Under the pieces are notes generated by a model. It saw only the letters and a list, made by a program, of their open reading frames with translations. It had not been told where the DNA came from and ran no database searches. Of a DNA stretch of 64,000 nt, positions 16,213 through 61,946 are shown one piece after another. Each line of letters begins with the position of its first letter. Position 1 is the stretch's first letter. Source of the DNA: Octopus vulgaris (Eukaryota); contig OX597815.1 of NCBI GenBank assembly GCA_951406725.2, positions 30,938,001 through 31,002,000 of the forward strand, given 5' to 3'. A program made the position numbers and the translations under genes.

Positions 16213-16405
16213 TAGGGAGAATTCACAAACAAAAAACAAAAGTCGAAGACAGGTGGTGTAGAAAACAAACAGATGTATTAGTATAACGCTCGGGAAGTGA
16301 AAAAGTTTTTAACGTTTCGAGCCTACGCTTTTCCACAGAAAGGAACACAGAAAGAAACAAAGAGAGAAAATAAATGAAGAATGTGTAGTGGCTCGCGATC
16401 TATTT
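16213..16405 (-). mobile_element. Short repeat carrying a hammerhead-like motif (16307-16342); probable Penelope-like pLTR relic
   Basis: Homologous to 26525-26706. Minus strand reads cttt-CTGTGGA-a-aagc-gtag-gctc-GAAA-cg-TT-aaaa. Confidence 0.65.
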
Positions 16406-17039
16406 CCGCAACTTTCTCCATTATTGCATCTACATACAGGTTTGGCCATTACTGATATAACCCCACATAATTTTATAGTACACCTCAACCAACAATTAAA
16501 CACTGTAGTACTTTGAGTCAACTGGTCGGAGCTCTGCCATTTTATGCTGATTACTCTTGATGACAATGCGTTCGAACACGAGTCCAACAGAAAATATATG
16601 TCTTGGAATATCCTTCACACAATAGAATACTTTAAAGTAAAAAAGCAAAAATAAAATAAGCTGAAGCGATTCACTCGCAACTCAAAAATACAAACAGAAA
16701 CATTAATTATGCACAAATGAAAATGATTTTCTCACTGCCTCACTGCTTGTAAGACAGCGATCCGAGAATCTAGGAATATTTTCCTAGACTGATCCGTCCC
16801 GAATTAAAGCAAAGCTTTCTGCTTTTTTTTTAACCCCAGAAGAGTCTCTGACAACATTTTGAAATCCTCCTAGTCACCACATCACACGAAAAATATTCTG
16901 TGAATAGCTTCGTTGTATGTCTTTCATCTTTCTCTCGTTTTATACATCAGTTCTAATCTATAGAGTAAAATAGAGTGTTTCATTCCCATGATAGGCAAAT
17001 TCAAGAATGCAGCTATGTACAAGCATAAATACATACATA

Positions 17040-17507
17040 TTGTATATATATATATATATATATATATATGTGTGTGTGTGTGTGTAAGTATATACATCCT
17101 CATATGCATACGTGAGTATGTAGGTACAGACACATACAAATATATATATATATATATATATATATATATATATATGTATATATATATATATGTATATATA
17201 TGTATATATATATATGTATATATATGTATATATATATGTATATATATGTATATATATATGTATATATATGTATATATATATGTATATATATATATGTATA
17301 TATATGTATATATATGTATATATATATGTATATATATACGTATATATATGTATATACATGTATGTATATATATATATATGTATATATATGTATATATATA
17401 TATGTATATATATATATGTATATATATATGTATATATATATATGTATATATATATATGTATATATATATATATATATATATATATATATATATATATATA
17501 TATATAT
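17040..17507. repeat. Compound (TA)n/(TATG)n microsatellite
   Basis: Seen directly. Confidence 0.93.
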
Positions 17508-17524
17508 ATTTATTATATAGAAGG

Positions 17525-17575
17525 AGCTTCTACAGGACTAGTACTGTTTCATTCAAGAGAAATCTTCAGGAAGCT
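17525..17575 (-). ncRNA. Type-I hammerhead ribozyme motif (inverted-arm copy)
   Basis: Exact reverse complement of 17886-17936. Confidence 0.8.
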
Positions 17576-58725: not shown

Positions 58726-58739
58726 GTTTATCGTTATTC

Positions 58740-59677
58740 CGGTTTATCGTTATTCAGATGGATTGTTGGTTTTGTTTGGTACACACGTGTTTTTTTTTTG
58801 GTTTTTTTGCAATCTTGGCGGTGCAACGTCTTCCCTTTGGTTTAATGGAGGGGCTGAGCAAGTTCAAAGAAATACATATAAGGGAGGGGAACGACATGAA
58901 AGTGTCCCCAGCCCAAACAAGTGTTAAAGGATAAGGAAGAGAGAACGATTGTTTACAGAACATACGTGGTGGCAACAAGAAAAATAGAAGTAGTGATGGA
59001 GGCATAAGTTGAAAAGGCGTTGAGGCCCGTCTGGCAAGAGATATCCTAGCTTGCCAAGGGAAGAACGTACAGAACGGTGGAAGTGTAGTTTCGGGAGTTA
59101 GCTACCGCCGGACTGCACTCAGCCACACCATTAAAAACTGAAGAAGTGGTGCTTCTACCTGTATACCTTGGGAGACGTGTTTCCAGAGTTAGTGTAGAAG
59201 ACATACCACCAGAAGCTGATGGCTGCCATACTGCTAGGCATGGAAAAAGAGGTGGTGGTCCTGCAGGCCACCAGAACACCCTACAGTAACTGGTAATGGC
59301 AGAGACTGAACGTGGTGGTATAGATTAACCCAGAAGATATTGAAAGTATGGTGGAAACAATCACGGTTGCAGACGTGACGCTGAAAGTCAGAGTGGAAGG
59401 GAAGATACGACGGTGCTATAAATGTGGTCTGAAAGGCCAATTAGAGTGGATTGTACTCCACCACCTGTGAAGACTAAAGAAAGGCTGAAAGGCAAGAGAG
59501 GGAGAAGGTTGGTGCTTCACTGCCCACGGAGGCTGAGGAAAAGTACGAGAAGGGGCCGAACGGCTTCATTCCATTTCTTCATTATATTCAATTCATCTTT
59601 TCCATTCGTTTGCTTTTTTCCCCCACCATGTGCTGTCCCCTCTATGTACGGCCTTCATGGCCAATTTCCTGAAATAG
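58740..59677 (+). mobile_element. ORF1-only L1/Tx1-like element, unit 3 with 3' tail
   Basis: VRVEGKIRRCYKCGLKG../IRVDC (frameshifted CCHC knuckle) at about 59390-59455; pyrimidine-rich 3' UTR ending tgtcccctctatgtacggccttcatggccaatttcctgaaatag. Confidence 0.75.
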
Positions 59678-61424
59678 AGAATCTTGCTTCCTAAACACAT
59701 GACTCACTGCGTGGCACCTTGAGCAAATTTATTCTATGAGAGCCACGGCCCGACTAAAACCTTGTGATTGGATGTGATTGAGGGAAACAGAAAGAAACCC
59801 GTCGTATATATATATATATGTATGTGTGTGTGTGTGTGTGTGTGTGTATGTGTGTGTGTGTGTGTATGTGTGTGTGTGTGTGTCACCACCATCGCTTGAC
59901 AACCGATGCTGGTATGTCTATGTCCCCTGGCAAAAGGGTCCGATAGAATAAGTACTAGGCTTACAAAGAATAAGTCCTGGGGTCGATTTCTTCTACTGAA
60001 AGGCGGTGCTCCAGCATGGCCGCAGTCACGTGACCGAAACATAGAAAATGAATAAGAACAGAATAACGAAGATATATATATATATATTCCATGCAATATA
60101 AACATAACGTCACAAGAAATTTGAAAAGCTACACGCGAAACCGGTATTTCTTTTAATTTATGTCATTATAAGAAGGAAAAAAATTTTTTTTTTTTAATTT
60201 TCTAATATTCTTCAGACATATTGACGCAAATATATATATTTTTTAATATTCAAGCCTTCTGTCGTTTTTTCGCTCTACTATTTTCTATATATATATATAT
60301 ATATATATATATATATATACATACACTCACACACACACTCAGACACATATGCATATAGAATAAAAAGTAAATTCAGCTCCGGTTCATGTATTAAAGTCGA
60401 TTGGACAACATGCTGTTATTATACATATATATAAATTTGTAATTTTCCAACAATGTAACCGAGTCAAGCTCGGTGGAGAGAGGCTTGACGGTAGAGTGTG
60501 AAGCCAGCTGCGTAGTTTAAATGTTGCACAAATTTCGTTGTGTTTACATCAGATCTTTATAAAACTGCTTAAAGCAAATTTATGGTATCTTTACTAGAGT
60601 TTATTTTATCGATTTTATGCAAAAATTGTTCTGTGCCTATTCCACAGATCTCGGTATTAATTCGGAGTCAATGAAATAGTCTGTGTCACACTCCGATAAA
60701 TTTTCTAGAGCCTTAGTTAGAAGGAATCCGTTTTTCTTATTCACTGAAGTTGTATTTCACCACGAAAATTATTCAATTACAAGAAAAATGTTTCGCTTAC
60801 TGAATTATGCTAACCTTCACTGATAATTATTTTTGAGCAAGATGGAACATCCCAGCACTGGATGACTACAATCAGGATTCGATATGTAGTAGGAATTAGT
60901 ATCTCATCATTTTCTGTTTCCTTAGATAATAAAGAAGAAAAAAAAGACCCTGCTGCTTCACCATTGAAATAAAAAGAGAAAAAAAACAAACAAACAAATA
61001 ATTAAATGGTATATCCTTTTACATTCGGATTTCAAATTCCTGCCGACGTCGACTTTACTTCTCCTGTGCCCGGGGATCAATAAATTCAGTATCAGTAAAG
61101 TAGTATATCATATTTAACCTTTACTTATAAATTACCACAAAAATGATGGCTTACGTGTTTATATTTATTATCGTATTTCCTGCATTCTGTTCAGTTTTTT
61201 AATACTCGTGAGTCATAGTAGCACTCTCAATATTTTTTTTCAACATTTATGTGATGTATCTTATCTGTCTCAACTGCTTTGTACGAATGATTCCGGGCCT
61301 ATATTAAGATTTTGGTGGCGTGTATAATTTAATAAACTCAGTTGTATTTAAATTGCTTCTTCATGCAGTAACTTTGGCATATTTGTTAACTTCATACAAT
61401 TTCTTGTTTGACATTATGCACGAT

Positions 61425-61946
61425 AAATTATTTACATTTTGATGGATTTTGTCCTCATCTTTGTTCTTAACACAACGTTTCGGCTGATATACTCTCCAGC
61501 CTTCATCAGGCGTCTTGGGGAAGTTTCGAACCTGGGTTCTCATTCCTGAGGTATTTTTCGATGTTGTTGTTGTTATTATTATTGTTATTATTATTATTAT
61601 TATTATTATTATTATTATTATTATTATTATTCAGGTCACTGCCTGGAATCGAACTCGGAATCTTGGGGTTAGTAGCCCGCGCTCTTAACCACTACGCCAT
61701 ATGCCCGTGGACATATCGAGGGCTACTAACCGCAAGATTCCGAGTTCTGCTAATAATAACAACACCGAAAAATACCTTAGGAATGAGAACCCAGATTCGA
61801 AACTTCTCCAAGACACCTGATAAAGGCTGGAGGATAGATCAGCCGAAACGTTGTGCCAACAACAAAGAAGATGAGGACAAAATTCGTCAAAACCTAAATA
61901 ATGTAAATAATATACATATTTCCTCATCTCTTAAATATAGAACTGT
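61425..61946. mobile_element. Head-to-head inverted dimer of a tRNA-headed, hammerhead-bearing short element with 12-bp TSD
   Basis: TSD attatgcacgat at 61413-61424 and 61947-61958; symmetry centre about 61707; tRNA-like head 61632-61707 on minus; hammerheads at 61470-61513 (minus) and 61814-61855 (plus). Confidence 0.85.
61470..61513 (-). ncRNA. Type-I minimal hammerhead motif, canonical core
   Basis: acgc-CTGATGA-a-ggctg gagagtatat cagcc-GAAA-cg-TT-gtgt. Confidence 0.8.

Follow-up and report, generated by a model that had tools for sequence, protein, structure and literature searches.

All eleven hammerhead-like motifs proposed in a first-pass annotation of the window, a 64,000-nucleotide stretch of Octopus vulgaris DNA, are present with a type-I layout at the coordinates in Table 1. 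The estimate of about six families also holds (A to F), but the motifs represent eight insertions rather than eleven independent elements: 17525/17886, 29282/29335 and 61470/61814 are opposite-strand arms, with one insertion per pair. A CUGANGA core had been assigned to every site. It is found at only four (17525, 17886, 43880 and 61470, in families B, E and F); the other seven carry CUGU-N-GA (A6U) in family A, A9C in family C, U4C at the three sites of family D, and G8A, which is private to few copies, at 61814. Stems I and II pair in register as described, except that one stem II pair is broken in three old copies (16307, 29335 and 41420), which also have core changes and were all missed by our descriptor. 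Stem III is short or palindromic (ACGU in A and F, ACAGCUGU in E, near-palindromes in D), with a 4-bp stem and partly palindromic loop in B and a 2-nt non-palindromic loop in C. None of the eleven sites lies within a tandem array, and the pairs are inverted, so the head-to-tail arrangement of non-LTR retrozymes is absent.

Table 1. Elements and hammerhead-like motifs in the window (positions in the window).
Feature	Positions	Strand	Details
Family A, older copy, 5'-truncated; 3' end of Neptune-type PLE	16213..16404	-	motif 16307-16342, CUGUGGA (A6U), one stem II mismatch; 84% identical to 26527-26691
Family B fold-back, inserted in (TA)n	17509..18022	.	3' end of Hydra-type PLE; extra tail (about 17953-18022) limited to + arm
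Family B motifs	17525-17575 and 17886-17936	- and +	canonical core, 4-bp stem III, U.U at 10.1/11.1
Family C insertion	23369..24884	+	99% identical to intact element
Family C, inverted RT-thumb/GIY-YIG fragment	23369-23971	-	GIY-YIG E=0.0019, below gathering
Family C, ORF end	23970-24197	+	then 3' UTR, then motif 24718-24762, CUGAUGC (A9C)
Family A 5'-truncated copy	26518..26705	+	ends at (TA)n; motif 26581-26616, CUGUAGA (A6U), palindromic ACGU stem III
Family D fold-back insertion	29176..29406	.	motifs 29282-29319(-) and 29335-29372(+), CCGACGA (U4C), near-palindromic stem III; tail limited to - arm
Family D longer 5'-truncated copy	41081..41490	+	motif 41420-41457, CCGACGA (U4C); 3' UTR of Hydra-type PLE
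Family E short copy	43853..44003	+	motif 43880-43927, canonical core, palindromic ACAGCUGU stem III
Family F inverted pair	61424..61946	.	two arms, one-sided tail
Family F, first arm		-	tRNA-like head (about 61633-61706, A box and presumed B box motifs), (AAT)n, body, canonical motif 61470-61513
Family F, second arm		+	truncated copy, motif 61814-61855, CUGAUAA (G8A), carries one-sided tail

In 100 local dinucleotide shuffles of the window, perfect cores averaged 0.04 (maximum 1) against the four observed, and descriptor sites with at most one core mismatch averaged 0.96 (maximum 4) against eight. Rfam reported no hammerhead in the window at the gathering score, and none among the 150 matches listed of 421 at E<=10; Pfam gave no match for 14 of the 16 window ORFs. 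The abundance and diversity of the population, which the annotation had emphasized, extend beyond the window: searching 80 systematically spaced 10-kb stretches of the genome (800 kb) for these families and an additional one (G) yielded 51 motifs. This corresponds to 4.1 motifs per 64 kb, with eleven or more in 0.7% of resamples, although the contrast between window and genome is inflated because the list of families derives from the window itself. Extrapolation from the sample gives approximately 180,000 such motifs genome-wide. CUGANGA was present in only 11 of the 51, and the whole core was intact in six by a crude test.

We identified sequences of Penelope-like elements (PLEs) upstream of the motif in longer copies of several families. 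Those of family A encode RT motifs and CX4CXXC plus GIY-YIG (Pfam RVT_1, E=1e-7; GIY-YIG, E=0.005, below the gathering score), and the best hits obtained for it are 54-63% identical. A CSRPRCRTC linker (CX2-5CxxC) precedes GIY-YIG in the translated ORF and the junctions are (TA)n, as expected of Neptune (PMC8557442); this linker and target are common to Neptune and Nematis. Family C has an intact RT-EN frame of 800+ aa, with the motif in both pLTRs and a pLTR-ORF-pLTR arrangement at one locus (L306). Both A and C thus encode RT and, at the C terminus, GIY-YIG, the latter below the gathering score, in one ORF, as in EN+ PLEs. For B and D, longer copies have an endonuclease fragment upstream and the motif at the 3' end. 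Only this fragment was recovered, without Pfam support; the RT motifs RWK and DKT were not recovered for either family, the hammerhead being canonical in B and U4C in D. The CxCX5C linker in translations of two loci (L295 and L335) and the (TA)n target are those of the Hydra clade (PMC8557442). Families A to D are therefore not the non-coding elements of the first-pass annotation but 5'-truncated 3' ends of coding PLEs (RT and/or GIY-YIG lies upstream in longer copies); at 24718 an inverted GIY-YIG fragment still adjoins the motif.

Longer copies of family E have at least 1 kb of common upstream sequence, and no ORF was reached in eight extended loci. The one endonuclease hit among them (L340) falls outside this common sequence. 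Similarly, no ORF was found within 1.5 kb of family G at 30 loci. Of the six families in the window, only F, with its tRNA-like head, looks non-autonomous; its link to PLEs is the PLE-specific one-sided tail. The head was followed by the F body in all six cases sampled (five by pattern, one by eye). An A-box motif was matched by pattern, and GTTCRANNC, read by eye, is what we take to be the B box. Rfam gave no tRNA match for the head, and ARAGORN found nothing at its default setting and a poor fold in one of two copies at a lowered threshold. No autonomous partner was found among 60 F motifs examined.

The changed cores are fixed in families that have amplified. In family A the motif is present in both pLTRs, and both carry U6 in young intact elements. 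U6 is carried by all 28 motifs recovered behind 30 RT hits and by 20/20 further young copies; the latter, which were chosen for long frames, have an unbroken ATG-RT-EN frame in six cases and a median pairwise identity of 99.6% over 1.3 kb. Exact genomic matches to the family A motif number 12,622 with U6 and 112 with the canonical A6. In family C, C9 was found in 23/23 motifs from 20 loci and in 96 of the first 100 of 3,053 genomic matches. For A and C these match counts argue against decay of a canonical core, which we reject. U4C is present in 35 of 42 copies of family D. Family G has 7,519 genomic matches with C4 and 2,632 with U4; a CpG-decay comparison gave 13 CTGACGA and one CCAACGA, so that decay accounts for part, but not all, of U4, and both subfamilies are probably present in G. 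The core changes characterize whole families and do not reflect decay, a feature that the annotation missed. A register shifted two bases downstream for the A core, as a U3 variant, destroys stems I and II and puts the variable base at position 4, and was rejected by inspection. The U6 motif was found in one contig of a metagenome scan.

Positions 7 and 17 of the hammerhead are free to vary. Among 35 copies of family A recovered through the 3' flank, 33 have U at position 6, and position 7 is A in 16, C in nine, U in six and G in four; because these 35 are the flank hits, of 43, with a motif within six edits, the set is biased towards conservation. A second allele in at least four copies was found only at positions 7 and 17 of 31 non-CpG motif positions, as against 17 of 63 in the flank (Fisher p=0.001 with positions 7 and 17 set aside). 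Some flank blocks are likewise invariant. The stems are also invariant, so there is no covariation within the family. Across families, however, comparison of A, G, F and a further contig (L374) shows that different letters still pair. Conservation of positions 3-5, 8 and 12-16 is compatible with retained catalysis as well as with a binding role.

The insertions have the structure of EN+ PLEs, including partial tandems, an inverted 5'-truncated arm and a one-sided tail. Targets are (TA)n in families A to E, and the tail is one-sided in 18/19 inverted pairs of F, 10/11 of B and 8/8 of D. Every copy ends about 20-130 nt beyond the predicted cut site, and thus the template RNA was uncut at that motif when reverse transcription began. 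Canonical-core families (B, E and F) also amplify and extend through the site, so this read-through does not single out the variants. Tandem pLTR-ORF-pLTR copies place two motifs on one RNA, and the upstream motif was run through in 11 of the 20 young A copies. None of 13 mapped 5' ends of young A copies lies within 3 nt of the cut site (the nearest is at +12), and no alignment starts there in A (0/40), G (0/36) or D (0/16). Corresponding counts for B (0/48) and E (0/30) carry little weight, as the copies were mostly selected for upstream similarity. In F, three of 30 starts near the site were one locus and alignment artefacts; both arms start there at L091. MFE folding of short monomers and dimers gave no information on the catalytic fold.

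We consider it probable that the motifs are minimal type-I hammerheads of PLE pLTRs, present as 5'-truncated or inverted 3' ends, and that in the most abundant families the sequence is conserved while the fixed A6U, A9C or U4C makes self-cleavage weak or dependent on an element protein. Likely, the fold is conserved and cleavage is weak, dispensable or dependent on protein. The cleavage rates of A6U and A9C are extrapolated from other ribozymes: in one study, single mutants in CUGA had low activity (PMC9901934), and a second gives cleavage below 0.1/min for a natural A6C and describes a U4C with weak in vitro activity that nonetheless sustains a viroid (PMC3088659). In the PAc element, catalytic mutants were without effect on insertion and the hammerhead cut only with protein (PMC11167929). 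By analogy with this anole element in vitro, the PLE protein may bind pLTR RNA, nick AT-rich DNA and prime reverse transcription downstream of the motif. The hammerhead fold would be retained as part of the RNP signal, with cutting rare or late, and family F may be a Pol III-type passenger borrowing the same machinery. Solo truncated copies in the genome are most probably inactive; an inverted pair would give rise to dsRNA, not ribozymes.

The variant cores could instead be fully functional in their natural setting, with the dimer and PLE protein (or an unseen tertiary contact) rescuing A6U, A9C and U4C; cleavage of tandem transcripts would then be a step that the cycle requires. The catalytic positions besides the changed one are conserved across subfamilies, with only 7 and 17 varying, palindromic stem III is retained, pLTR-ORF-pLTR tandems put two motifs on one RNA, and the PAc hammerhead is protein-assisted (PMC11167929). 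However, young copies lack 5' ends at the cut site, PAc insertion in vitro does not need cleavage, and DMS, as far as the accessible part of PMC9901934 goes, found CUGA mutants unrescued except for a 3-8 swap. We regard full function as rather unlikely. It is less probable still that the variants are catalytically dead and conserved as DNA, as a pLTR promoter or endonuclease-recognition sequence with the hammerhead shape a relic. The lack of compensatory stem changes in family A and the invariance of certain flank blocks would fit, as would the spread of Naiad and Chlamys PLEs without canonical hammerheads (PMC8557442), but freedom at positions 7 and 17 only is the pattern of a hammerhead fold, and the related motifs of G and L374 still pair although their letters in stem I or loop II differ.

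The first-pass annotation proposed that any transcript crossing a motif could be cleaved. In favor of dispersed copies acting as ribozymes on host transcripts is the extrapolated number of about 180,000 motifs; F sequence occurs in contigs of three probable RNA runs, and B, with its canonical core and 4-bp stem III, might act as a monomer. Yet those contigs span the F cut site, seven of the eleven window motifs have core changes, most motifs require a dimer partner, and CUGANGA and wholly intact cores are scarce in the genome sample. Minimal PLE hammerheads gave no monomer cleavage (PMC4209133), and an RNA crossing an inverted pair has an antisense copy alongside the sense motif, with which it would pair. 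We therefore find host-transcript cleavage very improbable. Chance matches in AT-rich, microsatellite-rich DNA can supply one-mismatch cores (about one per shuffled 64 kb), but they are refuted by the perfect cores (4 versus 0.04 in the window, 7 versus 0 in the 800 kb sample) and by the fact that all eleven sites belong to repeat families and occupy a constant position close to the element 3' end; we give chance practically no weight.

The motifs closely resemble the minimal hammerheads of metazoan PLEs (Cervera & De la Pena, 2014, PMC4209133). These likewise are type-I with short stem I, an extra base after A9 and palindromic stem III, and lie in pLTRs, mostly as solo truncated copies or opposite-strand pairs 100-700 bp apart, with thousands per genome. 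The core variant there is a compensated U3-A8 swap, whereas A6U, A9C and U4C here are uncompensated and family-wide, and the extrapolated total here is far above the 2,000-9,000 per genome reported. Families A, C and D thus appear to be variants resembling, and descended from, this class. With EN+ PLEs of the Neptune type and the Hydra clade (Craig et al., 2021, PMC8557442) the octopus elements share the C-terminal GIY-YIG, the linker (CX2-5CxxC in A and C, CxCX5C in B and D), (TA)n targets and tandem or inverted insertions with a one-sided tail. That study describes canonical hammerheads as universal among Hydra and other PLEs, whereas those of A, C and D are non-canonical; 3' UTRs are also long (1-3 kb) and microsatellite-rich, and the tails of B and D measure about 70 nt, against 30-40 there. 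The Anolis Poseidon element PAc (Frangieh et al., 2024, PMC11167929) similarly has two 3' ends split by a tail and inserts from hammerhead-uncut RNA, but its core is canonical and its protein-assisted cleavage demonstrated. Natural changes at positions 6 and 4 with low activity (A6C in a phage, U4C in a viroid) are rare single cases in the accessible part of Perreault et al. (2011, PMC3088659), where A6U and A9C are unnamed; here they mark whole amplifying families. Families F and G resemble the schistosome SM-alpha/Sj-alpha SINE-like elements and non-LTR retrozymes (PMC6765202, PMC7229834, bioRxiv 10.64898/2026.07.22.740005), which are short and non-coding, with a type-I hammerhead and proposed PLE machinery. 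F differs in being dispersed rather than tandem and in its tRNA-like head, minimal PLE-type hammerhead and direct PLE inversion-plus-tail signature.

PLE hammerheads are published and their abundance in animal genomes is known, but we found no printed precedent for family-fixed core changes in amplifying PLEs. A literature search, supplements included, turned up neither a report on hammerheads in octopus nor one on a tRNA SINE mobilised by a PLE. Nor did it return A6U or A9C PLE hammerheads, which Lunse et al. (2017), Arkhipova et al. (2017) or Repbase/Dfam entries may hold. Tentatively, and at somewhat less than even odds, the most successful PLE families of this genome may have given up catalytic speed in favor of a conserved fold repeatedly, each time independently (A6U, A9C and U4C, in at least three lineages), the "ribozyme" being mainly an RNA signal for the element protein or a protein-gated cutter, with the same machinery carrying a tRNA-headed SINE with a canonical hammerhead, a Penelope-dependent SINE class.

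Why PLEs keep hammerheads has been declared an open question (PMC8557442, PMC11167929). The commonest family, A, has a fixed A6U predicted to weaken self-cutting even in its youngest intact copies, and would thus provide a natural test of the need for the ribozyme. The A6U element, the A9C element and the near-isogenic U4 and C4 subfamilies are ready constructs for separating fold from catalysis. Because canonical descriptors and Rfam miss most such motifs, "HHR-less" calls and the counts given for animal genomes may be underestimates. With family F, PLEs would join the list of SINE partners.

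The window consists of repeats, is rich in microsatellites, and contains all eleven hammerhead-like sites reported by the first-pass annotation. With a descriptor comprising stems I-III, four perfect-core sites were found, versus 0.04 in 100 block-wise dinucleotide shuffles of the window, and eight with at most one core mismatch (versus 0.96). However, the core, described as CUGANGA throughout, has that form at only four of the eleven; the other seven carry A6U, A9C, U4C or G8A changes, and the original observation is confirmed in part. Comparison of the window with itself showed that three motif pairs are inverted arms of one insertion each. 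The eleven motifs therefore represent eight insertions of six families (A-F).

Hammerhead motifs (first position) and other features of the window
Feature	Position	Strand	Remarks
Non-LTR retrotransposon ORFs	13698-15897	-	RVT_1, E=1.5e-25; no relation to hammerheads
RT ORF	14566-15897		Named match in Argonauta hians, 57%
Family A motifs	16307, 26581		A6U
Family B motifs, inverted pair	17525/17886		
tRNA-Gly(GCC)-like sequence	19252-19323	-	Between microsatellites; possibly a pseudogene
Family C ORF end	23970-24197		Adjoining inverted piece 23369-23971
Family C motif	24718		A9C
Mariner-type transposase fragment	25315-25812	-	PF01359
Family D motifs, inverted pair	29282/29335		U4C (both)
SINE-like 217-bp unit, 2.7 tandem copies	37012-37594		Also dispersed elsewhere; no hammerhead by stem I-III descriptor
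Family D motif	41420		U4C
Family E motif	43880		
Family F motifs, inverted pair	61470/61814		G8A at 61814

In 80 systematically spaced 10-kb stretches (800 kb) of the 2.80-Gb assembly (227 contigs), the descriptor identified seven perfect cores, versus none in each of five shuffles, and 39 one-mismatch cores, versus 8-16; the latter excess is made up of A6U (11 versus 0.4) and U4C (9 versus 0). Family-specific matching found 51 motifs (A 19, G 12, F 11, D 6, E 2, B 1, C 0), a mean density of 4.1 per 64 kb, extrapolating to about 180,000 in the genome (roughly 130,000-235,000 given Poisson error). The window lies on the motif-rich side, in part because the family list was drawn from it. Family G, second commonest in the sample, has a mostly U4C core and was seen at L085:9140-9390 and 60 other retrieved loci as a (TA)n-inserted element of about 250 nt related to the family A pLTR; no ORF was found, and it is probably non-autonomous. 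Retrieved loci also include another Neptune-like PLE ORF and six or more additional hammerhead families with canonical cores (L302:3830-5497; L055, L074, L172, L186, L204, L209), so the seven counted families are an incomplete set.

Family A copies have ragged 5' ends and a common, fixed 3' end at (TA)n. Stepwise extension upstream revealed RT motifs, then a CX4CXXC linker and a GIY-YIG domain (Pfam: RVT_1 1e-7, GIY-YIG 0.005). Of 14,925 candidates in a search with this protein, 150 were scored as matches, about 100 of them equally; the A motif lies behind 28 of 30 matches, always with U6 (28/28). Twenty further copies, chosen for long open frames, have a median pairwise identity of 99.6%. All carry CUGUUGA downstream, 11 also bear it in the upstream pLTR about 4.5 kb away, and six retain an unbroken ATG-RT-EN frame. 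Family C likewise has near-identical copies; the RT-EN frame is intact in L302, and another locus (L306) has a pLTR-ORF-pLTR arrangement.

The core changes are inherited rather than the result of decay. Exact genome-wide matches to the A motif (position 7 = A, C or U) number 12,622 with U6 versus 112 with A6. In loci selected on grounds other than family A, 43 matches to its 3' flank yield 35 distinct, motif-bearing copies; U occupies position 6 in 33 of them, position 7 is divided among A (16), C (9), U (6) and G (4), and position 17 varies too. These last are the two free hammerhead positions. They alone, of 31 non-CpG motif positions, have a second allele in at least four copies, versus 17 of 63 flank positions (p=0.001), and flank identity drops to 64% at the tenth percentile. 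This motif-flank contrast recurs in contigs from four runs with four organism labels, many of which match the ~40-nt A motif alone and diverge on both sides. Stem covariation, a check proposed in the first-pass annotation, is absent among family A copies. Family C has 3,053 genomic matches, and 96 of the first 100 carry C9; C4 is present in 35 of 42 family D copies; in family G, C4 matches number 7,519 versus 2,632 with U4, and family E has both forms. A single U6-type motif (CUGUGGA) in a metagenome-collection contig, L374:2457-2504(-), from a different host that is probably an animal, combines the family A stem II with another loop, a different but pairing stem I and unrelated flanks.

Upstream of families B and D is 1.3-3 kb of common UTR, then a GIY-YIG-like fragment (without a Pfam score) with a CxCX5C linker (L295, L335), a feature of Hydra-clade PLEs (PMC8557442). 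Copies of family E have at least 1 kb of upstream sequence in common, and no ORF was reached in the extended loci. Family F is about 330 nt long. Its head, which contains A- and B-box motifs and is not called as tRNA by Rfam or ARAGORN, is followed by (AAT)n, a body and a minimal hammerhead of canonical type; 33 of 46 motif matches read CUGAUGA. A tail on one arm only is a signature of PLE insertion (PMC8557442, PMC11167929), and it was seen in 18/19 inverted pairs of F, 10/11 of B and 8/8 of D, which ties family F to PLE machinery; no partner element was found for it. In one inverted F insertion (L091), both arms begin at the predicted cut site, where there is a palindromic GTTAAC, and short local duplications accompany the insertion. 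At another F locus (L136:1497-1640), contigs of three probable RNA runs show A>G and T>C differences, including inside the motif, that hardly occur in a larger fourth run (for example, 6.7, 17 and 19% versus 0.08% at one place). Because the three runs are presumed RNA and derive from other samples, the pattern is a hint that dsRNA formed by inverted insertions undergoes A-to-I editing.

The abundance of minimal hammerheads in the pLTRs of PLEs, both as solo and as inverted copies, has been fully described since 2014 (PMC4209133), and the headline of the first-pass annotation is thus a further case of a known class; its interpretation, a dense, diverse population of non-coding PLE-mobilised ribozyme elements at which any crossing transcript could be cleaved, is partly supported. 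In the available portions of literature including PMC6765202, PMC7229834, PMC6962438, bioRxiv 10.1101/596502 and bioRxiv 10.64898/2026.07.22.740005, our searches turned up neither an active PLE family in which A6U or A9C is fixed nor a hammerhead SINE that combines a tRNA head with the PLE insertion signature; Lunse 2017, Arkhipova 2017 and repeat databases may contain them. The available text of PMC13282606, which for O. vulgaris lists 336 Penelope-like insertions as recently active, does not contain 'hammerhead' or 'ribozyme', and a term search of PMC11014351 had no matches.

Copies end 20-130 nt past the predicted cut site, and templates were therefore uncut at the 3' motif. Of 20 young A elements, 11 extend through the upstream motif as well, and the 13 5' ends that were mapped all lie away from the cut site. 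This read-through fits the Poseidon PLE of Anolis (PAc), in which unprocessed RNA is reverse-transcribed from a downstream start, insertion is normal in catalytic mutants and cleavage by the hammerhead requires protein (PMC11167929). Low activity is described for other hammerheads with position-6 or CUGA changes (PMC3088659, PMC9901934). Given the uncut templates, the PAc parallel and this low activity, the fold of the variant motifs is probably conserved while their cleavage is weak, gated by protein or dispensable. Variant cores could instead be fully rescued within an RNP, which we consider rather unlikely. The same read-through is seen in families B, E and F, whose cores are canonical, and this argues against the variants being special. 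Cleavage of crossing host transcripts, also anticipated in the first-pass annotation, is unlikely as a general effect: only 11 of the 51 sampled motifs have CUGANGA, inverted pairs would form dsRNA, and monomers of the minimal PLE hammerhead class showed no cleavage (PMC4209133).

The family B 3' UTR, about 3 kb long, is largely TA/TG/TATG microsatellite with family A copies inside (L294, L295, L208). These PLEs may themselves disseminate the (TA)n sequence in which they land and increase the microsatellite load of the genome.
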